IMG/VR virus record: IMGVR_UViG_2778261453_000019
Direction: 5' to 3' (one strand)
DNA: 19,266 bases
Source: a virus
Lineage: Duplodnaviria > Heunggongvirae > Uroviricota > Caudoviricetes
Part shown: piece by piece, positions 1-19,266 of the stretch
How the letters are laid out: each line of letters opens with the position of its first letter
How positions within the stretch are numbered: the stretch's first letter is position 1
The notes under the pieces: generated by a model
Seen by the model: the letters and a program-made list of their open reading frames with translations, nothing else
What the model was told of the DNA's origin: nothing
Databases searched by the model: none
Translations under genes and position numbers: made by a program

Positions 1-996
1 CTAACGAACCAGCCAGACCAGCATCAGGATAATCGCGACTAACAGTATCCACAGCGCGGGACGCGTTGCCATATTTTGCAACGTGTCCATCATCGGTGGA
101 AAAGGATTAAGCAGCGGTTGCATATCACGCGGATCAATCCCTTTAACCCGCCGTTGATAAAGCTGATTAAGAATATCCTCGGCCTGGGCAGAAGAAAGCG
201 ATGATTGCGCAGAAAGACCATATTTTTGCTGGATATACGCCGATAACGCTGCCAGTTCACTGGCATCTAAAGGTTGTTTTAGCGCCATCTGTAGTGATTC
301 CAGTGTCGGCGTATTTTGCTGGCTTAGCGTCTGACGCGCCTGTAGCCAGGTCACCAGATGGTTAAACAGTTTCGCTGGAATTAACTCGCCATCTTTCACC
401 CCGGAAAGTTCCAGCATCGATTGCCAGATCTGTTTGCTGGGTTCCCCCGTTGCCGCCGCAAGTTTGGTCACCAGCTGTTTAAGCGCATTGTGCTCCGCCG
501 GTAATAAAGGACGGTCGGTCGCCTCGCGCTGCTGCGGTTGCGGAATAACCATCTTCCCTTCCTGCAACAGGGTGAGAATGGTTTTTAATTGCTCCGGTGA
601 GAGCTGATTCAGCGGCGTCTGACCAAAGTTATGACGGATATAATCCGTGACCGCCTGACGATTATTCCCCAGACGTAAATACTCCCCTAATTGCGCTAAA
701 AGCTGGCGGGCAGAATGGCTTTTTTGCGCGGCCAGCAGACGTTGCGCCAGGTTGTGTTCAGCGGCAGGGAAGTGACGCGAAAGCAGCGGTGAATCTCCCG
801 ACAGACCAATATCGTGCCTGATACCCGCCCACAGTTCTGCTCTTTGCTGTTGCGTCAGTGAGGTCACTTTCGTCATTAAGCTTTCCAGCGAAGTACGTTG
901 CTGACTGGATAAAGGCTGATTGCCCGCGCCAGACGGCAGGTTATCTCCCTGACCTGGTGGTTGCCCAGGAGGAGGGCCGGAAATAGGTTGTATCAT
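1..996 (-). CDS. flk: Flk flagellar regulator (host chromosomal gene) with C-terminal membrane anchor
   Basis: 331-aa ORF recognised from memory as enterobacterial Flk (MIQPISGPPPGQPPGQ... with hydrophobic C-terminal anchor ALWILLVAIILMLVWLVR); host-like composition; stop codon at window positions 1-3. Confidence 0.8.
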   Translation of the reverse strand: MIQPISGPPPGQPPGQGDNLPSGAGNQPLSSQQRTSLESLMTKVTSLTQQQRAELWAGIRHDIGLSGDSPLLSRHFPAAEHNLAQRLLAAQKSHSARQLLAQLGEYLRLGNNRQAVTDYIRHNFGQTPLNQLSPEQLKTILTLLQEGKMVIPQPQQREATDRPLLPAEHNALKQLVTKLAAATGEPSKQIWQSMLELSGVKDGELIPAKLFNHLVTWLQARQTLSQQNTPTLESLQMALKQPLDASELAALSAYIQQKYGLSAQSSLSSAQAEDILNQLYQRRVKGIDPRDMQPLLNPFPPMMDTLQNMATRPALWILLVAIILMLVWLVR

Positions 997-1225: not shown

Positions 1226-2017
1226 TTATGGTTCGATCGCCGTTTTGAGCCGTTGTGTTGCTACATCAAAATAATGATCACTGGTTTCTATACCAATAAA
1301 TTTGCGTCCTGCTTTCAGTGCAGCCACACCCGTTGTCCCTGACCCCATAAAAGGATCAAGGACTGTTCCGCCACTATTCACAGTCCTGACCAGTTCCGCC
1401 ATTAGTTCTTCTGGTTTTCCGGTCGGGTGCATTTTCTTTGACGGGATAACCGGGAACGTCATGCAGCCGTCGAACGGTCCCGAAGGCGATTTATCTAAAT
1501 GGCCTTTGCTGCCCCAGACGATGTATTCGCACTGATGCCGGAAATACCCGGTATGTGGTGTTCGTGACCCCCTCCCTTTGTTCCACGCAATAATGCCGCG
1601 CCATGTAAAGCCACTGGCCTGAAACGCATCGGTTAAAGCTGGTAGTTGTCGCCAGTCAGTAAATACCAGGGCATAACCGCCCGGCCTGACTGCGCGGTGT
1701 GCCTGTGCCATCCATAATTGTGTCCAGTAAGCCCACGAACGGGCGTCCATGTTTTCACCCGCGAACCCATCAAAGCGGTGAAGGTTCTCGCCGTTCAGAT
1801 ATTTTGCATGGCTGCCCTGGTTGATGCGTCCGGCCTTGTGTGTCGCCCCCGAACTGTAAGGCGGGTCAGTGATTAAGGCATCAATGCTTTCTGGCTCAAT
1901 CAGCGGCAATATTTCCAGCGCATTCCCACGACAGAGCATGGCATTGTCAGTCTGATAAACCTTAGTGTGTTCCGGTGTATGTGCTGGTTGGTGCTGGATT
2001 GCGATCCCCACGGTCAT
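1226..2017 (-). CDS. DNA methyltransferase, beta-class (motif IV DPPY N-terminal, motif I DPFMGSGTTG C-terminal); probably N6-adenine specific, orphan (no cognate endonuclease in window)
   Basis: 263-aa ORF containing DPPY at residues ~51-54 and FMGSGTTG near the C-terminus; motif order IV before I defines beta group; true start could be the internal ATG at 1939 (MLCRGN...). Confidence 0.85.
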   Translation of the reverse strand: MTVGIAIQHQPAHTPEHTKVYQTDNAMLCRGNALEILPLIEPESIDALITDPPYSSGATHKAGRINQGSHAKYLNGENLHRFDGFAGENMDARSWAYWTQLWMAQAHRAVRPGGYALVFTDWRQLPALTDAFQASGFTWRGIIAWNKGRGSRTPHTGYFRHQCEYIVWGSKGHLDKSPSGPFDGCMTFPVIPSKKMHPTGKPEELMAELVRTVNSGGTVLDPFMGSGTTGVAALKAGRKFIGIETSDHYFDVATQRLKTAIEP

Positions 2018-2159
2018 AACTCCTCATGTGTGTGGGGTGCTCGATGGCTCTCGTTATCTGGTTAAGTGTTTTGCAGCGCGGACATTTTATTTCAATGTAG
2101 TGAAATGAGGCGCGGGCAAGTAGTTTGTTGCAATTTTTGCATCGTACATTTTGCGTCAT
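1962..2159 (-). CDS. com: Com-like zinc-finger translational regulator (phage Mu Com family)
   Basis: 65 aa from the ATG at 2159 (AGAGG SD 7 nt upstream); CKNCNKLL...IEIKCPRCK closely matches recalled Mu Com (CKNCNKLL...IEIRCPRCK); 3' end overlaps the methyltransferase start by 56 nt as com overlaps mom in Mu. Confidence 0.75.
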   Translation of the reverse strand: MTQNVRCKNCNKLLARASFHYIEIKCPRCKTLNQITRAIEHPTHMRSYDRGDRNPAPTSTYTGTH

Positions 2160-2204
2160 TTGCGGCACCTCTTGTGTGGTTACTGCTGCCGATATGATAA
2201 CAAA

Positions 2205-2394: not shown

Positions 2395-2535
2395 TTACTG
2401 CTTACACTGTAAGAACGCCGCAAACTCCGCTCCCCAGAAGCTCATCCGTATTTCACACAGCGAACCGTGCAGCATCCAGATGATGAGGATTACCGTCACG
2501 CAGAACGTGATGGCCGTAAGCGATTTTTGCGACAT
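2395..2535 (-). CDS. Hok/Gef-family type I toxin-like small membrane protein (46 aa)
   Basis: Unlisted small ORF MSQKSLTAITFCVTVILIIWMLHGSLCEIRMSFWGAEFAAFLQCKQ: one N-terminal TM helix, SLCEI and E-x-AAF-L-x-CK motifs matching recalled HokA/Hok signatures; AAAGGAG SD 8 nt upstream; structured leader with a short upstream ORF (mok-like). Confidence 0.6.
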   Translation of the reverse strand: MSQKSLTAITFCVTVILIIWMLHGSLCEIRMSFWGAEFAAFLQCKQ

Positions 2536-2726: not shown

Positions 2727-2987
2727 TTAATTCTGAGGTAAAGGCAAACTCATCTGATTGTTTCCCCTGTGTGAAGCTGGCAGTTCATGCCACGGGATAC
2801 CTTCTGAAGAGTGAACGCCGGAGGCGTGTTTTGATGTGAATTTATGGAAAGCTTCCAGTGTTGAGAAGCATACGCCGCATTCCAGATTGTTACACTGGTA
2901 ATACTTTTGCCGCACGGTGTTTGAATCATTTTCCGGACGACTGGTGCGGATACGGGCAGATGCGCCACAAAGCGGACAACGGAACAT
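2727..2987 (-). CDS. ogr: Ogr/Delta-family zinc-finger late transcription activator
   Basis: 86-aa ORF MFRCPLCGASARIRTSR...YYQCNNLEC matches recalled P2 Ogr (MFHCPLCQHAAHARTSR...YHQCQNVNC) C-x2-C-x22-C-x4-C; strong SD AAGGGAGG. Confidence 0.85.
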   Translation of the reverse strand: MFRCPLCGASARIRTSRPENDSNTVRQKYYQCNNLECGVCFSTLEAFHKFTSKHASGVHSSEGIPWHELPASHRGNNQMSLPLPQN

Positions 2988-3071
2988 AGCGACCTCCCTT
3001 AACGTGGTGCTGCTACCATTCTAAGTTGTCCCAATTCAGATTCCAACTGACAGCCCTCCCTGAGTGAGGAG

Positions 3072-4142
3072 CTATCTATAGTCTTCCCATGAGTTTTCAT
3101 CGACACAAAATTCAATACCAGCATCCAGTCCATTTATGTGCAAATTAAACTCATCATTGATAAACTGGCCTTCGTCTATTTCAAAGAATAATTCTAGTTC
3201 TACTGTAAAATCCTTTTCCTCCTCCTCGTGATTAGATACGGTGTCAAAGGTATAAAATTTTCCATCCTCTTTGTCATAATAGCCGTTTGCGGTATCAGGT
3301 CCGCTGGCAGTGACATTAAAACTAACAGTAACATCAAAAGTAATTTGACAACTTTCGTCATCCAAATGAATTATTTTGGGTTCGAATTCGCTTATGTTCG
3401 TAATTTCAAAGCTATCAATCTCTGAGTCTTCCCATGTTGAAGAATTATAAGCTTCAGCAGTTTCTAATTCTTCCGTTAATTTTTGTATGATTTCTTCATT
3501 TTTGCTTTCTAAAAAACGTTCTATAAATCCAGTTCTTTCGTCATTGTGTTTGTTGTAATCATCTAGTAGTAAGTTTAGTGCTCCTATAATTATGAAATTA
3601 TCATTGTCTTCACAGTAACCTTTTAGGTCAGGGTCTTCTGAAACCACATAAATTTTTTCATTATCTCCTAGCGCGGAACGTATTGCTAAAAGAGTGAAGG
3701 CGTCTCGAAATTCGTTAGGTTTTTTCGCACTAAAGGGGCTTTTTTTATCAAAGTACATGTCTATAACCTCATTGAGGTCCACCTTCGACATATCTACAAT
3801 AGTTGTGTTTGAGTCCTCCATGAAACCATTAAATGCGCTTAATGCCTTTTCTTGAATGTCTGTTTCATTAATTTCACAAAATAGATTTTTAATATTGTCA
3901 TCTTCATATTCTTTGAGGATAACAGCCTTTCGTCGGAAATTGTTAATCCCTTTCAATGCTTCTTGTATATGCTCTATGATTTTTCGTTCAACTTCTTTAA
4001 CTACAATTGTTGTAGAAATATGCCTGAACTCATCATTTCTACATAGTTCTTCAAATGATTTTATAGTTTTTGAGTTGAAGTCCAGGTTTGCTTTTACAAA
4101 AAACTCAGTATCAATGAATACATTGCGGGTAACTAGAGACAT
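3072..4142 (-). CDS. AT-rich cargo protein of unknown function (356 aa); N-terminal domain with PIN-like acidic-residue pattern (tentative), highly acidic C-terminal domain; candidate defence/exclusion moron
   Basis: Long ORF with strong SD (AAAGGAG 8 nt upstream of ATG at 4142); visibly AT-rich versus flanking phage genes; inserted between D and ogr, which are adjacent in P2. Confidence 0.85.
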   Translation of the reverse strand: MSLVTRNVFIDTEFFVKANLDFNSKTIKSFEELCRNDEFRHISTTIVVKEVERKIIEHIQEALKGINNFRRKAVILKEYEDDNIKNLFCEINETDIQEKALSAFNGFMEDSNTTIVDMSKVDLNEVIDMYFDKKSPFSAKKPNEFRDAFTLLAIRSALGDNEKIYVVSEDPDLKGYCEDNDNFIIIGALNLLLDDYNKHNDERTGFIERFLESKNEEIIQKLTEELETAEAYNSSTWEDSEIDSFEITNISEFEPKIIHLDDESCQITFDVTVSFNVTASGPDTANGYYDKEDGKFYTFDTVSNHEEEEKDFTVELELFFEIDEGQFINDEFNLHINGLDAGIEFCVDENSWEDYR

Positions 4143-4314
4143 TTTCCAACTCCTTTTAATATATTAACCCAAATGAGGTAACATCATAAAAGATCACATA
4201 GTCACTTGTATTGGTATCTTGAGTCAAGAGAATATGATGGCGCTTACAATTTTTGTGACAAGGCTAGATGTCAGACTGTTAAGTGCTATAAGCGAGTTAA
4301 TATATTTAAGTTGC

Positions 4315-5415
4315 TCACTCTGTTTCCGCTATCCATTCCGGGATTTTTGCCTCAAGTTCAAGCTGCGTGGTAAAGCCGCTGTTATCAATGGTGTGCTCGG
4401 CTTTTGCAATAATCCAGTCCTGATTATCAATCTCGCTTTTAAATCCTGTTACCGTGCCATGCATTTCGGGGTAGAGTTCTGCACGACCACGTGCCAGCGT
4501 GATGGAGAATGATGCGGCTCCGCGTTGTAGCTGCTGCCACTTTGCCGCCGCTGCGCGTCTTGCTGCCTGTTCGTTCTGATAAGTCTTGCGTAACACAAAC
4601 ACGTTGCCTTCCGCACCTTCCATATAGTCACCTTCACGGCTGCTGCTTTTCTCCTTTTTCGGTTTGCGGCGTTTCACGCTGACTTTTTTCTTTTTCCCGT
4701 AATTAAGATCAAGCCAGTAAGCGCGTACCCCCGTATACGCTTCGCGGTCAGCAATGCGGAACTGATGGCGATCGCCACTGCTGCGCGTGATGGCGAACGA
4801 GGGCAACGGCTGGCCCTGTGCGTTCACGCCACCGCCTGGCATGATGAATAACAGATTACCGCTTTTTACCGTGGTGATTGCGCCCAGCATTTCCGCCATG
4901 CGCGTAAGGAAGGACATGTCGCTTTCTTCGGTCTGGTCGGCGTGGTCGATTTCAATATCCATCAGCATTTCGCTGATTTGTGGTTTCAGACCGTACCGAT
5001 GAGCGATGGCGGATACCACGCGCTCAACGGTCACATCATGCCAGGACACCTCACGTTTAACGTTAAATTCATCCCGAAAATCTGCGCTTCTGGCTGAAAC
5101 AGTCAGCCTGTCCGGCGGTCCTTCGTGAGCGATTTCATCAACAATGTAAGTGCCTTTTTCTGTCAGCGGTTCTCCTTTCCAGCCAATGAGAACCGTCAGG
5201 CGCGCGCCCCGTGGCGGTAGCTGCAACTGACCATCCGCATCATCCAGCGTGATGGTGAGCTGGTCCGCTTCAAATCCCCGGTTGTCGGTCAGTGACAGAC
5301 TCATCAGGCGCTCTGCCACGCCGGACAGCGTTTCCCCCTCCGCGAGAATATCAAAATCCGGCATTTTCACGGGGTCTGTGCTCTGTCTGAGCAATTGCAT
5401 GGTGGTGTCGGTCAT
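4315..5415 (-). CDS. D: P2 gpD-like tail protein (late control gene D)
   Basis: Family recognised from translation; start set at internal ATG 5415 (MTDTTMQ...) preceded by GGGAGGG SD rather than ORF-track start 5436. Confidence 0.85.
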   Translation of the reverse strand: MTDTTMQLLRQSTDPVKMPDFDILAEGETLSGVAERLMSLSLTDNRGFEADQLTITLDDADGQLQLPPRGARLTVLIGWKGEPLTEKGTYIVDEIAHEGPPDRLTVSARSADFRDEFNVKREVSWHDVTVERVVSAIAHRYGLKPQISEMLMDIEIDHADQTEESDMSFLTRMAEMLGAITTVKSGNLLFIMPGGGVNAQGQPLPSFAITRSSGDRHQFRIADREAYTGVRAYWLDLNYGKKKKVSVKRRKPKKEKSSSREGDYMEGAEGNVFVLRKTYQNEQAARRAAAAKWQQLQRGAASFSITLARGRAELYPEMHGTVTGFKSEIDNQDWIIAKAEHTIDNSGFTTQLELEAKIPEWIAETE

Positions 5416-5571
5416 CTTTCCCTCCCTGTGCGGCATGGTCGCATGTGCGTGCGGAGTGGGTTACTGCTTTTTGTTGTCGCCGTGGCGGGAGAACGGCGCA
5501 GGGGTGAGATTACGCGCGTGGTGGGTGATGATTGTTGCCGAATCATTTAACGGATACAAGGGGCTGAAGCT

Positions 5572-6756
5572 ATGAGTGAAACTCGTTTTCATGGTGCCCG
5601 TGTCACGGAAAGTACCGACCTGGTAACAGCGATTAATGATGTTGATTCCAGCGTTATCGGTATCGTGGCAACGGCGGATGATGCGGATGCGGAGCTGTTC
5701 CCGCTGAACAAGCCCACACTGCTGACCCGCGTCAATGACGTGCTGGGAAAATGCGGGACTACGGGGACGCTTTATCGTGCGCTTAAGGCTATCGCAGACC
5801 AGGTGAGCACAAAAGTGATCGTCGTTCGCGTGGCTGAACACAAAGAAGAAGACGGTAGGACGCAGGATCAACTGGTTATCGGTGGTTCTGAATCTGACGG
5901 CAGCTATACGGGGATGTATGCGCTGCTTGTTGCAGAGCAGGATGAAAGCATCGGATACCGTCCGCGTATTCTGGCCGCGCCGGAGCTGGACACGGAGGCG
6001 GTGACAAAATCCCTGTGCGTGATTGCGGGTAAACTGCGCGCGTTTGTGTATGCCTCATGTCATGACTGTAACACGATGGCTGAGGCAATTACCTACCGCC
6101 AGAAATTCAACGAACGTGAGGTGATGCTCTTATGGCCGGACTTCATCGCCTACAACCCGAAAAGTGGCAAAAACGAAACGTTCCCCGCGCCTGCCTATGC
6201 GTGCGGCCTTCGTGCGTACATTGACCATGAGCAGGGCTGGCACAAATCGCTGTCCAACGTTCCGGTTAAAAATGTGCTGGGGATGTCCAGGCATGTGTTC
6301 TGGTCGTTGCAGGCCGAAGACAGTGATGCCAACAGCCTCAACAACAAAGAAATCACGACCATTATTCGTCGCAACGGGTTCCGCTTCTGGGGCAACCGCA
6401 CACCGGAAACGAACGCCTACATCTTTGAGGTGTATACCCGAACCGCACAGGTGCTGGCTGATTCAATTGCGGAAGCGCAGTTTGAAACCATCGACAGTCC
6501 ACTGACGCCTGCGAACGTGAAAGATGTTATCAGTGCCATCAGGGCAAAACTGGATTCACTGGTTACTGCCGGGAAACTGATTGGGGCGTCGTGCTGGTAT
6601 GACGTGGTGGATAACGGCACCACGAATTTACGTCAGGGGCGCGTGCGTATTCGCTACAAATATACGCCTGTTCCCCCGCTGGAAGACATGGAGCTTTACC
6701 AGTCGTTTACTGATGAATTCTTTGGTCCCGCATTTGCGGTGCTGGGAGGTGCCTGA
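5572..6756 (+). CDS. FI: Contractile tail sheath protein (P2 gpFI-like)
   Basis: 394 aa (P2 FI ~396 aa); sequence family recognised; followed by tube gene with TGATG overlap. Confidence 0.9.
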   Translation: MSETRFHGARVTESTDLVTAINDVDSSVIGIVATADDADAELFPLNKPTLLTRVNDVLGKCGTTGTLYRALKAIADQVSTKVIVVRVAEHKEEDGRTQDQLVIGGSESDGSYTGMYALLVAEQDESIGYRPRILAAPELDTEAVTKSLCVIAGKLRAFVYASCHDCNTMAEAITYRQKFNEREVMLLWPDFIAYNPKSGKNETFPAPAYACGLRAYIDHEQGWHKSLSNVPVKNVLGMSRHVFWSLQAEDSDANSLNNKEITTIIRRNGFRFWGNRTPETNAYIFEVYTRTAQVLADSIAEAQFETIDSPLTPANVKDVISAIRAKLDSLVTAGKLIGASCWYDVVDNGTTNLRQGRVRIRYKYTPVPPLEDMELYQSFTDEFFGPAFAVLGGA

Positions 6757-7268
6757 TGGCTGTACCAAAACATCTTCGCTTTTTTACGCTGTTTGTGGAT
6801 GGTGAAAACGAAGTGGGTAAGGTGACGTCCGTCACTCTGCCTAAGCTGACGCGCAAAACCGACAGCTACCGGGGTGGTGGCATGATGGGTGCGGTAAGTA
6901 TTGATCTCGGTCTGGACGACTCCGCGCTTGATGCGAGCTTTGTCATGGGGGGCGCAGTTCGTGAGCTGTTCCTTAAGTATGGCGGCACGATTGACGGCAC
7001 GCTGCTGCGTTTTGCGGGTGAATACTACACCGATGCAGAAAGCGACTTGTATGAAGTCGAAATGCGCGGACGTGTGACGGAAATTGATATGGGGGAAGCC
7101 AAACAGGGCGAAGCCACATCACACACTTACGCCATTAAAAACACCTACTACAAGCTGAGCGTTAACGATCGCCCGTTGTGGGAGATTGACCTGCTGAACT
7201 TCATTTACCGGAAGGACGGCAAGGACATTGTGCCCGATCGCATCCGTTCCGCGCTTGGGCTTGGCTGA
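6756..7268 (+). CDS. FII: Tail tube protein (P2 gpFII-like)
   Basis: 170 aa, position after sheath gene; family recognised. Confidence 0.9.
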   Translation: MAVPKHLRFFTLFVDGENEVGKVTSVTLPKLTRKTDSYRGGGMMGAVSIDLGLDDSALDASFVMGGAVRELFLKYGGTIDGTLLRFAGEYYTDAESDLYEVEMRGRVTEIDMGEAKQGEATSHTYAIKNTYYKLSVNDRPLWEIDLLNFIYRKDGKDIVPDRIRSALGLG

Positions 7269-7322
7269 TAAGTAATATGCAGGCGGCGCAGTGCGTCGCC
7301 TCTGACTGAAAGGAGTTTCCTG

Positions 7323-7688
7323 ATGAAAGAGACGAAAAACATCGATACCGAAAACACGGTAGTTACTGACACTGTGAAAGAAACCAGTGAGCGTGGCGTA
7401 AAACTTACCCAACCAATTGAGCGAGGCGGCGAAAAAATCACGTATGTGGAGATCACCGGGGCTATTGAGCAGGCTGGATCTCTGCGAGATTTGTCGCTGT
7501 CTGATGTGCTGAATCTGAAAGCGGAATCCATGTTTACGCTGCTGTCACGCGTGACATCACCGCGACTGGATGAAGTGACGATCAAAAAAATGGCATCCCG
7601 TGACTTTATTCAGTTATGTGTGGTTGCCGTAAATTTTTTGAGCGGTGCGGACTCTGGCGGGAAGAACGAACAGGCGACGGAAGCCTGA
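7323..7688 (+). CDS. E: Tail assembly chaperone (P2 gpE-like), zero-frame product
   Basis: 121-aa ORF between tube and tape-measure genes with AAAGGAG SD; contains slippery TTTTTTG. Confidence 0.8.
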   Translation: MKETKNIDTENTVVTDTVKETSERGVKLTQPIERGGEKITYVEITGAIEQAGSLRDLSLSDVLNLKAESMFTLLSRVTSPRLDEVTIKKMASRDFIQLCVVAVNFLSGADSGGKNEQATEA

Positions 7689-7852
7689 TCACGGTTGTGT
7701 GCTTTGAGTACATAGAAGACTTTGTGGCGGATATTGCCGCCATTTTTAACTGGTCGCCCGCCGAAATCTTCATGATGACGCCCGGCGAAGTGGTTAGCTG
7801 GCGTGAGCGGGCGGCACTTCGCAGCGGGAATGCAGACAATGAAGACTCTTGA
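7323..7852 (+). CDS. Tail assembly chaperone E+E' fusion made by programmed -1 ribosomal frameshift at T TTT TTG (7634-7640)
   Basis: The -1 frame ORF (7616..7852) overlaps the E 3' end and is entered exactly at the TTTTTTG heptamer; conserved E/E' (lambda G/GT-like) architecture. Confidence 0.7.
7634..7640 (+). promoter_or_regulatory. Slippery heptamer TTTTTTG for -1 programmed frameshift
   Basis: Read directly; matches canonical P2 E/E' slippery sequence. Confidence 0.7.
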
Positions 7853-9266
7853 TATCCGGGTCGCTTTCAGCGCCGTTGACAGGCTGACCCGGCCTGCCGA
7901 AAACGCCCGCCGCCTGATGGGGCAGTTTGGTGACTCCATCCAGCGAACGCAGGGGGCGATCAAAAATCTCGAGCGTCAGGCGCGATCATTTGAGCGCGCC
8001 CGCGACGCTGTCAGTAAAGCGGATGCGGGCATCGTGAAAGCACGACGCCAGCTTAACGCCCTTAATCAGTTACAACGCACGGGTACAGTGCTCAGCGAAA
8101 AACAACAAAAGCTGATGCGGCAGTTAAGCACCCGGCTTGAACGCCTGAATGAATCGCGCACACGGGAAATTCAGAAAATGCGGGAGCTTGGCGGAGAGCT
8201 GAAACGCCACGGCATTTCCCTGACAGGCAGCGATAACACCATCCAGCAGGCCATCAGACGCACCGAACAGTACAACAACCAGCTTGAACGCGAACGGCAG
8301 GCGCTTGCGCGTGTAACGCGGGCGCGTGAGCGGTATTCGCGCGTGCAGGAAACCGCGGGAAAACTGAAAACAGGTGGTGCGCTGGCAATTGGTGCGGCAG
8401 CGGCTGGCGGCTATGCTGCCGGGCGTTTTTTGCAGCCTGCGATCGGGTTCGGGAAAGAGATGTCCCGCGTTCAGGCGCTGACGCGAATCGACAAAAACAG
8501 CCCGCAGTTTAAGGCGCTGCGTGAGCAGGCGTTAAAACTTGGCTCTGAAACGCAGTTCACCGCAGGCGATGCCGCCAGTGGGCAGGCATTTCTTGCAATG
8601 GCTGGCTTCACACCACAGACCATTCAGGCTGCGCTCCCTGGCGTACTGAGCATGGCAACGGCTGGCAGTATGGACCTCGGTGAGACGGCGGATATTGGCT
8701 CAAATATTCTGACGCAGTTCGGTCTTTCTGCTGACCAGATGGACCGGGTCGGCGACACACTCACCGCAGCGTTTACCCGTACCAACACTGACCTTCGCGC
8801 ACTGGGTGAAACCATGAAATATGCAGGTCCGGTGGCGGGTAAGCTGGTTGATGAGACGAAAAAACGTATTGGCCCCGGCGATATTGTCTTTAAGAACCTG
8901 CCCCGCGCACTTGCCGTTCGTGGGGAGTGGCAGGAGCGGAAGATTGCGCAGGTCAGTAAGCCTGCTTCCGCAATCAACATCACACCCGTGGTCCCGACTC
9001 CTCTGCCTCCGGCGCTGGTCCCTGTTGTTGCGGCCAGCTCCCGCCCGGTGGCGGAGGCCATACGATCGCCAGTGGCATCAGTTCCTGCAACTTCCCGTAA
9101 CCGGGAGCCTGTTGTCTCCGGATTTGGCGGTGAAATTCATGTTCATCTGCATAACGTTGTTACGCAGAATCCCCGCGAACTGGCGAAACTGGTCGGTGAA
9201 ATGGTCAGGGCAGAAATGGAACGGCGCGCCCGTGCCGGGCGTGGCAGTTTTTGCGATAAAGATTGA
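7839..9266 (+). CDS. T: Tail tape measure protein (P2 gpT-like), apparently shortened (~475 aa)
   Basis: Coiled-coil-like N-terminal region, Gly/Ala-rich hydrophobic segment, LGETMKYAGPVAG tape-measure core motif; ORF-track start 7803 (GTG), ATG at 7830 or 7839 more likely. Confidence 0.8.
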   Translation: MKTLDIRVAFSAVDRLTRPAENARRLMGQFGDSIQRTQGAIKNLERQARSFERARDAVSKADAGIVKARRQLNALNQLQRTGTVLSEKQQKLMRQLSTRLERLNESRTREIQKMRELGGELKRHGISLTGSDNTIQQAIRRTEQYNNQLERERQALARVTRARERYSRVQETAGKLKTGGALAIGAAAAGGYAAGRFLQPAIGFGKEMSRVQALTRIDKNSPQFKALREQALKLGSETQFTAGDAASGQAFLAMAGFTPQTIQAALPGVLSMATAGSMDLGETADIGSNILTQFGLSADQMDRVGDTLTAAFTRTNTDLRALGETMKYAGPVAGKLVDETKKRIGPGDIVFKNLPRALAVRGEWQERKIAQVSKPASAINITPVVPTPLPPALVPVVAASSRPVAEAIRSPVASVPATSRNREPVVSGFGGEIHVHLHNVVTQNPRELAKLVGEMVRAEMERRARAGRGSFCDKD

Positions 9267-9278
9267 GGAGTCATGGCC

Positions 9279-9767
9279 ATGATGATGATCTACGGCATGT
9301 TTGTTTTTGAGCTGCGCACATTGCCGCATCAGCAGTTACAGCAAAATAAAAGCTGGCGGCATGTGAAAAATGAACGCGTTAACCGTTCAGCAAGCTGGCA
9401 GTATATCGGTGCAGGTGATGACCGCATCGTTCTTTCTGGTGTGCTTTATCCTGAAATTACAGGTGGCGAAGTGTCGCTGTCTCTGCTGACCACGCAGGCG
9501 TATACAGGACGGCCCTGGCCTCTGATTGATGGCGTCGGGCAGATTTACGGCATGTATGTCCTGACCGAAACGAATACGACCCGTTCCGAGTTTGATCGCT
9601 ACGGTAAAGCGAAAAAGATAGAATTTTCACTGACTCTTGAACGCTGTGATGAGGATTTGCGGGAGCGCCTGCAATCCTCATCGTTCAGCGATATGTTGTC
9701 CGGCTTCAAAGATAAGGTGACATCATCCCTTAATAGCGCGGCCAGCTCAGTTAAGGGGCTGCTCTGA
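9279..9767 (+). CDS. U: Tail protein (P2 gpU-like)
   Basis: ~162 aa ORF directly after T; GAGGAG SD placed for ATG at 9279 (ORF track start 9273). Confidence 0.8.
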   Translation: MMMIYGMFVFELRTLPHQQLQQNKSWRHVKNERVNRSASWQYIGAGDDRIVLSGVLYPEITGGEVSLSLLTTQAYTGRPWPLIDGVGQIYGMYVLTETNTTRSEFDRYGKAKKIEFSLTLERCDEDLRERLQSSSFSDMLSGFKDKVTSSLNSAASSVKGLL

Positions 9768-9872: not shown

Positions 9873-9923
9873 CTCTTAACCTTATAACATGTGTGGTCTG
9901 AAATAATAATTAAGGAGATTATC

Positions 9924-10496
9924 GTGCTGTCTTACTTAATGGCAATTCACTTTGTTTTATTTGGGAACTCTACTAATTTAAAAAACTTCTGGAAATATGA
10001 AGTAATTCGGCGGAAACGTATGGATATCTGGAGGCTTTTAAGAGAGAAAAAACAGCGTAACCGGAATTTCCTTTTCTGGTGGCGGTTGGCTAACGAAATG
10101 TATATTAATGGTAATAAATTACATAAGAAAGCAGCCAAAAAGTTAAACAGTAAAATAATTAACAAATTTGGTTGTGAAATTGGATTGGGCGCAAATATTG
10201 GAAAAGGGTTAACAATTCCCCATCACACTGGAATTGTTGTTCATTTTGCTGTTGATGCTGGTGAAAATCTGGTGTTACGACAGAATACTACCATTGGACA
10301 GATAGATGGTGACATGCCTGGTTCAAGAGTAAAAATTGGTAGTAACGTTGATATCGGAGCTAATTGTTGCATCATTGGATTATCACGTAAAATTGGGGAT
10401 AATGTAAAAATAGGTGCAATGTCTTTTATAAATAAAGATATACCATCGAACTGCACATATATAACTAAAAAGAGCGGTGCTGTATTGTATAAATAG
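9924..10496 (+). CDS. Hexapeptide-repeat (left-handed beta-helix) acetyltransferase, serine O-acetyltransferase/CysE-like; AT-rich moron
   Basis: Repeating [LIV]-G-x-x-x-x hexapeptides (IGLGANIGKG, VKIGSNVDIGANCCIIG, IGDNVKIGA) and HHTGIVV resembling CysE core; GTG at 9924 preceded by AAGGAG (9912-9917); ORF track start 9891. Confidence 0.8.
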   Translation: MLSYLMAIHFVLFGNSTNLKNFWKYEVIRRKRMDIWRLLREKKQRNRNFLFWWRLANEMYINGNKLHKKAAKKLNSKIINKFGCEIGLGANIGKGLTIPHHTGIVVHFAVDAGENLVLRQNTTIGQIDGDMPGSRVKIGSNVDIGANCCIIGLSRKIGDNVKIGAMSFINKDIPSNCTYITKKSGAVLYK

Positions 10497-10503
10497 AGTA
10501 CAT

Positions 10504-10541
10504 AAAGCCATCGATATTTCTATCGATGGCTTTTTCTTTTT
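10504..10541. terminator. Strong rho-independent, probably bidirectional terminator (AAAGCCATCGATA-TTTC-TATCGATGGCTTT then TTTTCTTTTT)
   Basis: Perfect 13-bp stem, 4-nt loop, T-tract on plus strand and A-tract upstream; lies between convergent acetyltransferase and G. Confidence 0.8.
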
Positions 10542-11118
10542 ATTGTGGGGCGACAGGCCACTCAATATCTGCTGCTACTGTTGTATCAACACGATGCAAC
10601 AATACCCGATATGTCTTCCATGCAGCCAGTAACGATGTCTCTTCCTCCGTCGCAATATCTAAATCTATAGCATCCTGAAGTGGTGCAATATGCTCACTGG
10701 CTACCTGCATCAGGCTGTTTTTTGTTTCTTCCGCCTCCCTTATCCGAAACAGTTTTTCTGCTTCTGCATCTTTCACCCAGGATGTGCCGTTCCACTTCTG
10801 ATACTCTCCATACGGCGACAACCAGGTAACATTTTCCGGTAATGGACCGAGTTCAGAAATAAATAACGAGTCCCCTGATGCCACGTCATAAACCGTTTTA
10901 CCCCGATGGTCTTCAACGAGATGCCACGATGCCTCATCACTGTTGAAAACGGCCACGAAGCCAGCCGGAATATCTGGCGGGGCAATATCGGTACTGTTTG
11001 CAGGCAGACCTGTATGAGGTGGAATGTATGCATCACCTTCACCAATAAACTCATTGGTTCCGGTCAGTAGATTATAAATTTTTATGGTCCGTGATTGTTC
11101 ACTCATTCTGAATGTCAT
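10540..11118 (-). CDS. G: Tail fibre assembly chaperone (P2 gpG / Tfa-like)
   Basis: 192 aa immediately downstream of tail fibre gene with overlapping start/stop; family recognised. Confidence 0.8.
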
Positions 11119-18153: not shown

Positions 18154-18374
18154 CAGCACAACTCCGCAAAGATTCGCGGGCGACACAGAATGTCAGAGAT
18201 GGCCCAGCTCACATCGCGCCACAAATCCGATGTCTGTATATCCAGTGCGTCCGCCCGGCGGTCGCCCTTGTCCGTTGTGTCCGCATCGCGGTAACGCTCC
18301 AGAATCAGGGCGCGTGTGGCGGTATAAAAGCGCGTGCGTAAGGTATTTGACAAAAAATCGGTAGCGGTGGCCAC
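18153..18374 (-). pseudogene. C-terminal fragment of head completion gene (P2 gpL-like); N-terminus deleted
   Basis: Open frame upstream of X with TGATG overlap as in P2 L/X; overlaps the integrase 5' end, no head genes beyond. Confidence 0.45.
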
Positions 18375-19266
18375 TGAACGCTACATCATGGCGAACGCTG
18401 AAAAGCGGGAATATATACAGGGCTACCGTGATCGTCGAACGCTAAATGATTTGCTTGAGTTGTGGTGGATGTATCACGGCCAGCACAGGCGTAAGGCGGA
18501 AGAAGACCGAAAACAACTGCGCAACATAATCAATGAGCTTGGCGCTGATATGCAGGCTGTGGATCTTGATAAGCTGAAAATTATCGCGTGGCGTTCTCAA
18601 AAGATAGCTGAAGGATTGAAACCGTCATCTGCTAACAGGTACATGAATCGGTTATCCGGAATGTTTACCGTGCTGAAAAAAATAGGTCTTTGGGATGCAG
18701 AACATCCAGTAAGGGGAATTTCTATTCTTTATGTATCTCCACGAGAAATGGCGTTCCTGTCACAGAAGGAAGTGGCGCTATTGCTCGATACACTGGAGGG
18801 CGACTACTGGCGTGTTGCGCTTTTGTGTTTAAGCACAGGGGCGCGCTGGAGTGAAGCTTGTAAGCTTCGTGGTGAACAGATAGTTCATAACCGTGTAACG
18901 TTTCTTGAAACCAAAAATGGCCGGAAGAGAACAGTGCCAATTTCGCAGGCAGTTTGTGAGGCGATCAAAACCAGAGAAACAGGCGGCTTGTTTGAGGTGA
19001 AGTACCGGGAATTCTGCCTGGCGCTGAAAAGAGTTAAGCCCGATTTACCAAAAGGCCAGGCTGCACATGTGCTGCGGCATACGTTCGCCAGCCATTTTGT
19101 GATGAACGGAGGAAACATTATTGCGCTTCAGAAGATTCTTGGTCACGCAACCATTCAGCAAACAATGGCATATGCGCATTTTGCACCGGATTACCTGCAG
19201 GATGCGGTGGCCCTTAATCCGCTGAAAGGTGGCGTAAGTGTCCACGCAGTGTCCACGGGGGATTAA
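18334..19266 (+). CDS. int: P2-type tyrosine integrase, N-terminally truncated (arm-binding region missing); catalytic domain intact
   Basis: 310 aa aligning to recalled P2 Int from RRKFDKKSEAV onward; H-x-x-R box and catalytic Tyr (MAYAHFAP) present; in-frame stop at 18325-18327 just upstream of GTG start. Confidence 0.85.
   Translation: MRKVFDKKSVAVATERYIMANAEKREYIQGYRDRRTLNDLLELWWMYHGQHRRKAEEDRKQLRNIINELGADMQAVDLDKLKIIAWRSQKIAEGLKPSSANRYMNRLSGMFTVLKKIGLWDAEHPVRGISILYVSPREMAFLSQKEVALLLDTLEGDYWRVALLCLSTGARWSEACKLRGEQIVHNRVTFLETKNGRKRTVPISQAVCEAIKTRETGGLFEVKYREFCLALKRVKPDLPKGQAAHVLRHTFASHFVMNGGNIIALQKILGHATIQQTMAYAHFAPDYLQDAVALNPLKGGVSVHAVSTGD

Follow-up and report, generated by a model that had tools for sequence, protein, structure and literature searches.

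The gene between the tail gene D and the late-gene activator ogr of a P2-type E. coli prophage was, with a probability of roughly 60%, acquired horizontally as a single-gene anti-phage defence (superinfection exclusion). It belongs to the DUF4935/PIN_12 family, which also includes Cosus, and is cargo in a minor variable slot at the D-ogr junction. We analysed the gene within its window, i.e., the whole 19,266-nucleotide stretch of DNA, which is the end of the prophage adjoining the host gene flk (ORF 1..996; flk per the annotation of strain M19). We establish which domain the gene encodes, that its catalytic residues are intact, how the protein is built and that it is homologous to Cosus, and also that the gene is mobile and stands alone and that its slot is variable. 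Judging from these sequence relationships, it is probably a divergent, prophage-borne, Cosus-like defence gene, and its product would be expected to have an anti-phage phenotype.

An AT-rich gene between D and ogr

The original prediction placed a 1.07-kb ORF for a 356-aa protein on the minus strand between D and ogr, gave it a Shine-Dalgarno sequence of its own, and read its low G+C content (about one-third, versus about half in the flanks) as a mark of horizontal acquisition. All of this held up. The ORF is present exactly so (Table 1), and its GC content is 0.338, versus 0.539 in gene D, 0.483 in ogr and 0.527 in the rest of the window; GC3 is 0.294, versus 0.591 in gene D. The insert that carries the gene is missing from empty sites. 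The ORF is not a chance one, because 109 close homologues and 3,749 cluster representatives match it. The gene order on the minus strand is D, the PIN ORF, ogr, hok/gef, a Com-like zinc-ribbon/DNA methyltransferase pair and flk.

Table 1. Features of the window, with positions counted from its first letter
Feature	Position	Strand	Evidence or remark
N6/N4 DNA methyltransferase	1226..2017	-	overlapped by Com-like ORF
Com-like zinc-ribbon ORF	1962..2168	-	Zn_ribbon_Com E=1e-11
Hok/Gef type I toxin gene, directly downstream of ogr	2395..2535	-	Pfam HOK_GEF E=3.7e-7
ogr, late-gene activator, downstream flank of slot	2727..2987	-	Pfam Ogr_Delta E=5e-14
Promoter-like site TTGGAA-17-TAGAAT upstream of ogr	3018..3046	-	-35 in boundary segment 3029-3071
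Left copy TTCTAAGTTG of imperfect direct repeat flanking insert	3019..3028
AT-rich insert, ~1.27 kb, missing from empty D-ogr sites	~3029..4303		GC 0.345
DUF4935/PIN_12 Cosus-like protein, complete ORF	3072..4142	-	356 aa + stop, ATG start
Acidic all-beta C-terminal domain, aa 229-356	3075..3458	-	conserved, orphan fold
Helical linker, ~aa 191-228	3459..3572	-	model helices 189-197, 201-213, 215-227
PIN domain, ~aa 7-190	3573..4124	-	long helical insert after strand 2
Shine-Dalgarno AAGGAG, 7 nt before ATG	4150..4155	-	sequence read
Sigma-70-like promoter candidate TTGTCA-16-CATCAT	4234..4261	-	consensus match only, 9/12
Right copy ATTTAAGTTG of flanking direct repeat	4304..4313		abuts D stop codon
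Tail gene D, upstream flank of slot	4315..5436	-	Phage_GPD E=1.5e-17
FI-FII-E-T-U tail block	5572-9767	+	opposite strand to D/ogr, 2727-5436 (-)
Tape-measure gene	~7839-9266	+	~476 codons vs 936 in M19, ORF still open
201-aa ORF in U-G tail slot (Z/fun-type)	9891-10496	+	sub-threshold hexapeptide-repeat (acyltransferase-like) match
Rfam IS009 (RF02111)	10577-10775	-	182 bits vs gathering score 117, full model; inside tail-fibre assembly gene (10540..11118)
Phage integrase ORF	18334..19266	+	other E. coli genomes have integrases of 100% identity

The sigma-70-like promoter candidate lies within the insert, ~92 nt 5' of the ATG of the PIN gene. We found no intrinsic terminator between D and the PIN gene, nor between the PIN gene and ogr, so the PIN gene may be co-transcribed with D or ogr. 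An alternative route of expression could be read-through from the late transcript of D. An Rfam scan of the insert gave no RNA element, and a repeat scan gave nothing meaningful except the boundary duplication and an AT-rich palindrome. The latter, a perfect 12-bp palindrome TTAATATATTAA at 4156-4167, adjoins the Shine-Dalgarno sequence of the PIN gene and has a near-copy at 4297-4309, where the insert meets D (inverted repeat I3: 14 nt, 93%). Either an operator or mere chance in AT-rich DNA could explain it.

A PIN_12 domain fused to an acidic beta domain

A PIN-like nuclease fold had been proposed for the N-terminal part of the protein, and the domain searches bear this out. The sole Pfam match is PIN_12 (PF16289, formerly DUF4935; 74.9 bits, E=1.3e-20, aa 8-172), which spans model positions 1-171 of 172 and compares with a cut-off of 32 bits (the curated gathering threshold). 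The putative catalytic acidic tetrad consists of D11, E50, D147 and D170, joined by D172; across 241 family sequences these positions are acidic in 100% (D11 and E50), 99.6% (D147 and D170) and 92% (D172). Among 74 aligned close homologues, the invariant residues include D11, T12, E50, P136, F137, E144 and F145, as well as D147, A148, Y165, S168, D170 and D172. [quoted passage not shown]

The C-terminal part is as extremely acidic and beta-rich as the original prediction said. Residues 229-356 are all-beta in the model and contain 35 D/E and 5 K/R, for a net charge of -30 and a pI of 4.05. This domain is as conserved as the PIN domain, and its charge is kept across the 241 family sequences (median -26, range -34 to -11). 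It carries the motifs W237-E-D239 and D283...Y289-D290-x-E292-D293, and D283, Y289, D290, E292, D293 and D239 are its most conserved residues in the same set.

Reference collections add little. PHROGs contains no match for the 356-aa protein, which therefore resembles no phage structural, lysis or regulatory family, in keeping with the expectation that it would be unlike any P2 protein of those kinds. NCBIfam gave nothing useful, and searching PDB sequences with a profile yielded no solved structure for any member of the family. Structural comparison did not help to place the protein either, as Foldseek returned no match at E<=0.001 for the full model against all PDB chains. PADLOC-DB v2.0.0 (2023) likewise brought no support for the defence call, with 0 families at E<=1 for the window protein; Cosus itself also has 0 matches there, so the database predates the PIN_12 defence family. 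With no PADLOC v2 model for either protein, no defence-finder tool supports the call.

Distant homology to the integron defence protein Cosus

Cosus is the brc24 cassette, a single-gene defence with a PIN_12 domain found in mobile integrons, and it is reported to give complete resistance to T7 at high and low MOI (bioRxiv 10.1101/2024.07.02.601719). We took the true Brc24 sequence from plasmid pKAZ2 (ALG87191.1, 382 aa), which matches PIN_12 at E=2.4e-36. By profile comparison, the window protein is a distant, full-length homologue of this validated single-gene defence protein, because both hhalign and a broad family HMM run through both domains. The hhalign comparison of the window family with Cosus reached 98.7% probability (E=4.4e-16, 269 columns), pairing query 7-278 with Cosus 10-302, i.e., the PIN domain and the linker into the beta domain. 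The broad family HMM scored 134.8 bits over Cosus residues 10-357 of 382, and an intermediate member, P0111, matches Cosus directly at 9e-25. Identity between the window protein and Cosus is ~23%, and a direct tblastn of the window protein gave E=0.006 against brc24 as transcribed from the paper's PDF, a text with errors. Cosus D14, E52, D153 and D177 align with window D11, E50, D147 and D170. This distant, full-length relationship makes the window gene a credible, and not an unprecedented, candidate defence gene.

In Cosus, the substitutions T12A, D14A or D96A lower protection >1e5-fold, with 100-fold residual protection, and they are the only ones of 11 mutants that the text names as strongly impairing; D153A and D177A, at the equivalents of window D147 and D170, are not reported critical (bioRxiv 10.1101/2024.07.02.601719). 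In our alignments, Cosus D14 falls on the invariant window D11 and Cosus T12 on window F9 (F in 93% of the family, where T is not conserved), and D96, in the gapped helical-insert region, is paired with E90 by hhalign and unpaired in the MAFFT alignment. The sole escape mutation obtained lies in the tail protein gp12, which led the Cosus authors to suggest that the protein acts in two ways, one of them by interfering with genome injection (bioRxiv 10.1101/2024.07.02.601719). Given the few impairing mutants and the tail-protein escape, a simple model in which a PIN nuclease cleaves RNA is not established even for Cosus. The protein carries a fitness cost of 11% at high expression, and under a strong promoter it could not be established in P. 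aeruginosa (bioRxiv 10.1101/2024.07.02.601719).

The D-ogr junction is a small, variable slot

The D-ogr flanks match those of P88-like phages (genus Xuanwuvirus). We sampled 60 evenly spaced records from the 1,205 E. coli records that share these flanks, and the junction proved to be variably occupied in related prophages, as would be expected of a cargo slot. It was empty in ~32, with D and ogr adjacent and a span of ~615 bp (as in UTI89 and JJ1886), and held cargo of up to 1.5 kb in ~13; in the other 15, the ogr flank alone was joined. Both states also occur among sequenced phages: P88, Chuche and PhiR44_2 have an empty junction, and 500465-2 and 520873 an occupied one. There are at least seven kinds of cargo, among them the PIN gene, a 340-aa protein, a 295-aa protein, a ParA/AAA_31 ATPase and a DUF3800 protein. 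We also asked whether the alternative cargoes are known defence genes; the 340-aa protein has a sub-threshold HEPN_RiboL-PSP match and the ParA-like protein a weak P-loop match to the PADLOC candidate PDC-M28B, and these were the only such matches. Since the alternative cargoes are not recognised defence genes, guilt by association in this slot is weak.

The insert bounds were set by comparison with the empty site of UTI89, which has a 42-bp D-ogr spacer. An empty site contains a single TATTCTAAGTTG, and the insert is flanked by an imperfect duplication of it. The ogr-side boundary segment (3029-3071), ~40 bp long, is common to all occupied sites whatever their cargo; it contains GATTCCAAC, the reverse complement of which supplies the TTGGAA -35 hexamer of the promoter-like site upstream of ogr. 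On the D side (4294-4313), occupied sites have in common a short TAATATAT-TAAGTTG. A small hairpin of variable sequence also lies in the ogr-side boundary. Boundaries shared regardless of cargo suggest that cassettes are swapped inside constant ends, and a single ancestral insertion, followed by cargo replacement that preserved ogr expression, would account for the alignments. The duplicated TAAGTTG and the retained ogr -35 may be what allows cargo to be exchanged without disturbing ogr expression.

Other hotspots of P2-type elements have been studied. The gpA-gpQ hotspot was analysed by Rousset 2022 (PMC9122126), and a 2026 survey lists minor hotspots at int-att, at int-primase and within tail genes, without naming D-ogr (PMC13586616). 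The D-ogr slot has therefore been at most loosely described. The main P2 hotspot is never empty according to that survey (PMC13586616), whereas D-ogr is mostly empty in our sample.

A mobile family without a fixed partner

The PIN gene occurs in 16 of 5,426 complete E. coli genomes, from mouse, sheep, cattle and human isolates; it is always at the D-ogr junction, at least 99.5% identical, and in these genomes never on plasmids or at other loci. Its close family comprises 109 clusters (38-99% identity, nearly all 354-357 aa) from Enterobacterales, Pseudomonas, Xanthomonas, Acinetobacter, Aeromonas, Variovorax, Achromobacter and one cyanobacterium. An exhaustive profile search returned 3,749 representatives at 50% identity clustering, and the best 150 of these are nearly all ~345-385 aa long and matched over most of their length.

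The family sits in many kinds of element. In Serratia (79% identity), the gene lies between gpA remnants and the portal gene, i.e., in the canonical P2 old/tin hotspot, directly beside Lamassu, and in Enterobacter phage ENT4 (65%) it lies between the P2-type genes S and V, so that three P2-type prophage slots (D-ogr, gpA-gpQ and S-V) hold the family. Other carriers are a lambdoid prophage of Aeromonas (53%; in a moron slot with antiterminator Q on one side and lysis genes on the other), an E. coli ICE with AcaB, topoisomerase III and TraG (45%), and a 153-kb plasmid of Yersinia pseudotuberculosis with MazEF nearby (65%). Y. enterocolitica (72%) has MazEF, LPD38 and T5orf172 genes nearby, whereas the Achromobacter homologue (44%) adjoins AbiJ_NTD4 and HEPN genes and a 2,015-aa AAA_16 protein, that of Pseudomonas chlororaphis (63%) lies in an island with a TIR-domain gene, and that of Pseudanabaena (38%) sits amid BrnT and Uma2 toxin-type genes. 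In Acinetobacter (50%), the gene is alone, with a TetR gene on one side and catalase genes on the other. Neighbours differ across all 11 sampled contexts, with no recurring partner, as would be expected of a gene that works on its own in defence or conflict. Among the sampled contexts, only Achromobacter has a possibly co-transcribed partner: a 272-aa ORF (L026 6179-6997) that faintly matches GIY-YIG and stops 4 bp upstream of the PIN_12 gene.

This distribution bears on two other explanations. One is a late-expressed nuclease that serves the phage's own lytic cycle or inter-element warfare, acting on host or competitor RNA, host defences or P4-like satellites. Such a role would fit the shared orientation of the PIN gene with D and ogr, the lack of a terminator-like site from D to the PIN gene or from there to ogr, and the homologues within morphogenesis blocks of P2-like phages. 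We consider it unlikely: the family is also found in an ICE, a plasmid, chromosomal islands, integron cassettes and the solitary Acinetobacter gene, the ENT4 homologue is opposite in strand to its flanking late genes, and Cosus defends from a phage-free plasmid (bioRxiv 10.1101/2024.07.02.601719). The other explanation is that the PIN protein has a cellular role, in RNA processing or regulation, and takes no part in conflict between elements. Many PIN proteins do act in RNA maturation (PMC5499597), and the lone Acinetobacter homologue stands between housekeeping genes. A gene that is patchy, rare, AT-rich, carried on mobile elements and without a conserved chromosomal locus is nonetheless extremely unlikely to have such a role.

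The rest of the prophage

The Hok/Gef protein encoded directly downstream of ogr (WP_000078920.1) is annotated at the same place in five of the six E. coli prophages whose annotation was inspected, with any cargo, and the sixth has a near-identical variant; no sok-like RNA near hok/gef exceeded the Rfam threshold. The Com-like and methyltransferase genes recall the layout of Mu com/mom, but with a methyltransferase. The hok-to-flk interval is itself variable, as other strains have TagO with a zinc-ribbon protein, or a TM2-domain protein, in this place. The tail block and D/ogr are on opposite strands, so D is divergent from the sheath gene. In P2, the order is colinear, FI...U-D-ogr; the divergent arrangement is thus unlike P2 and matches P88-like (Xuanwuvirus) phages. 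At the U-G position, where the window has a 201-aa ORF, M19 has a family-9 glycosyltransferase, and this position is a second variable cargo slot in the window, possibly for surface-polysaccharide modification.

The tape-measure gene lacks ~1.38 kb that is present in M19 (L001 24145-25528), so the prophage may be defective or build a shorter tail. Synteny with the M19 prophage stops at 18328, in the lysis/tail-X region, and the junction at ~18328 is spanned in 0 of 5,426 complete genomes. The modules for head, terminase and replication are missing from their expected places, which points to truncation, rearrangement or a second element.

Could the PIN gene, then, be an inert or decaying passenger in a defective prophage? 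The missing tape-measure segment and the break beside an unrelated integrase would suit this idea. We judge it very unlikely, as the ORF is intact and nearly identical in all 16 genomes from their different hosts, every putative catalytic and C-domain motif residue is kept, and, according to the 2026 survey, defence genes stay intact in defective P2 elements (PMC13586616).

Proposed mode of action

If the gene is a defence gene, it would be transcribed in the lysogen from its own candidate promoter. The product would be a metal-dependent PIN endonuclease of the VapC type that most likely cleaves RNA. The fused acidic beta domain would keep the nuclease harmless or target it, perhaps as a regulator or sensor in cis that replaces a separate antitoxin. 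Infection by a competing phage would engage the protein, and nuclease activity would then stop the invader early. Because Cosus protects at high MOI, direct immunity is favoured over abortive infection.

In VapBC complexes, the C-terminal tail of the antitoxin fills the groove of the PIN domain. By analogy, a nucleic-acid-mimicking acidic domain could fill this groove within one chain, just as VapB tails fill it in trans. A component of the phage might then dislodge the domain, and the family would be a "single-chain toxin-antitoxin" immune sensor. It is tempting to join three ideas here, namely that the acidic domain is a new in-cis regulator, that the prophage subfamily differs from Cosus in specificity, and that D-ogr is a dedicated cassette-exchange site. 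As a whole, this joint reading is rather doubtful.

A toxin restrained in cis could also serve a different end, i.e., a self-contained addiction or stabilisation module that maintains the prophage and does not defend. This explanation draws on the VapC-like PIN domain, the hok/gef killer gene one gene away, the homologues that adjoin MazEF and BrnT modules, and the fitness cost of Cosus and its toxicity when strongly expressed (bioRxiv 10.1101/2024.07.02.601719). However, one polypeptide offers no obvious differential decay of toxin and antitoxin, and about half of the related prophages have nothing in the slot, with its cargoes swapped freely, which argues against strong addiction. The validated homologue, moreover, is clearly anti-phage (bioRxiv 10.1101/2024.07.02.601719). 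Altogether, addiction seems improbable next to anti-phage defence.

Significance and comparison with known systems

The PF16289/DUF4935 family and the Cosus-type architecture are already known; what is new, on present alignments, is a divergent, prophage-borne member. The finding is solid but comes as no more than a moderate surprise, since one member of the family is already validated and such prophage hotspots are well established. If defence is confirmed, Cosus-type PIN_12 defence would extend from integron cassettes to temperate phages, and one single-gene module would be seen to move among lambdoid prophages, ICEs, plasmids, defence islands and three P2-type slots. PADLOC v2 (2023) lacks the family, large as it is (~3,700 clusters at 50% identity). 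The allele in this E. coli prophage is a natural one, its insertion site is mapped and it comes with its native regulatory region, which makes it a handy object of study, and D-ogr is now documented as a small, mostly empty cargo slot of P88-like phages with conserved cassette boundaries.

In the literature on PF16289/DUF4935/PIN_12, we found only Matelska et al. 2017 and the integron paper; a 2026 paper on domain-centric discovery does not mention PIN. Matelska et al. catalogued DUF4935 as VapC-group proteins ~350 residues long, in which 4-5 acidic residues are conserved, a long helical insert follows strand 2 and the C-terminal alpha/beta part has no known homologues, encoded by mostly monocistronic genes, with no function assigned (PMC5499597). 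The window protein fits this description exactly, though no link to mobile elements or defence was drawn for DUF4935 in that work (PMC5499597).

Compared with VapC toxins, the window protein is ~2.5 times larger, with the helical insert and the fused acidic domain, and shares 9-14% identity with them. Membership in the VapBC type II toxin-antitoxin systems is rejected because there is no VapB antitoxin gene: the 1.27-kb insert holds the PIN gene alone, and homologues have no conserved small neighbour gene. The gene resembles P2 exclusion morons in being AT-rich accessory cargo that a P2-type prophage carries at a place where cargo turns over rapidly. It differs from P2 old/tin (gpA-gpQ slot) and Z/fun (tail-gene slot) in both slot and protein family, and the D-ogr flanks confirm that its position is neither of these two, as had been proposed.

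The closest parallel is Cosus. Both are single genes whose products, of the same size class (382 aa in Cosus versus 356 aa), share the PIN_12 domain, the helical linker and the acidic beta domain over their whole length. They have in common the motifs PF..K..NEF.DA..LLA and VS.D and the C-domain WED, and their C-domain charges are -29 (Cosus) and -30; the Y-D-x-E-D motif is partly kept in Cosus as R310-D311-x-I313-D314. The two differ in vehicle, since Cosus is carried by an IncC plasmid as an attC-bearing integron cassette, whereas the window gene is prophage cargo.
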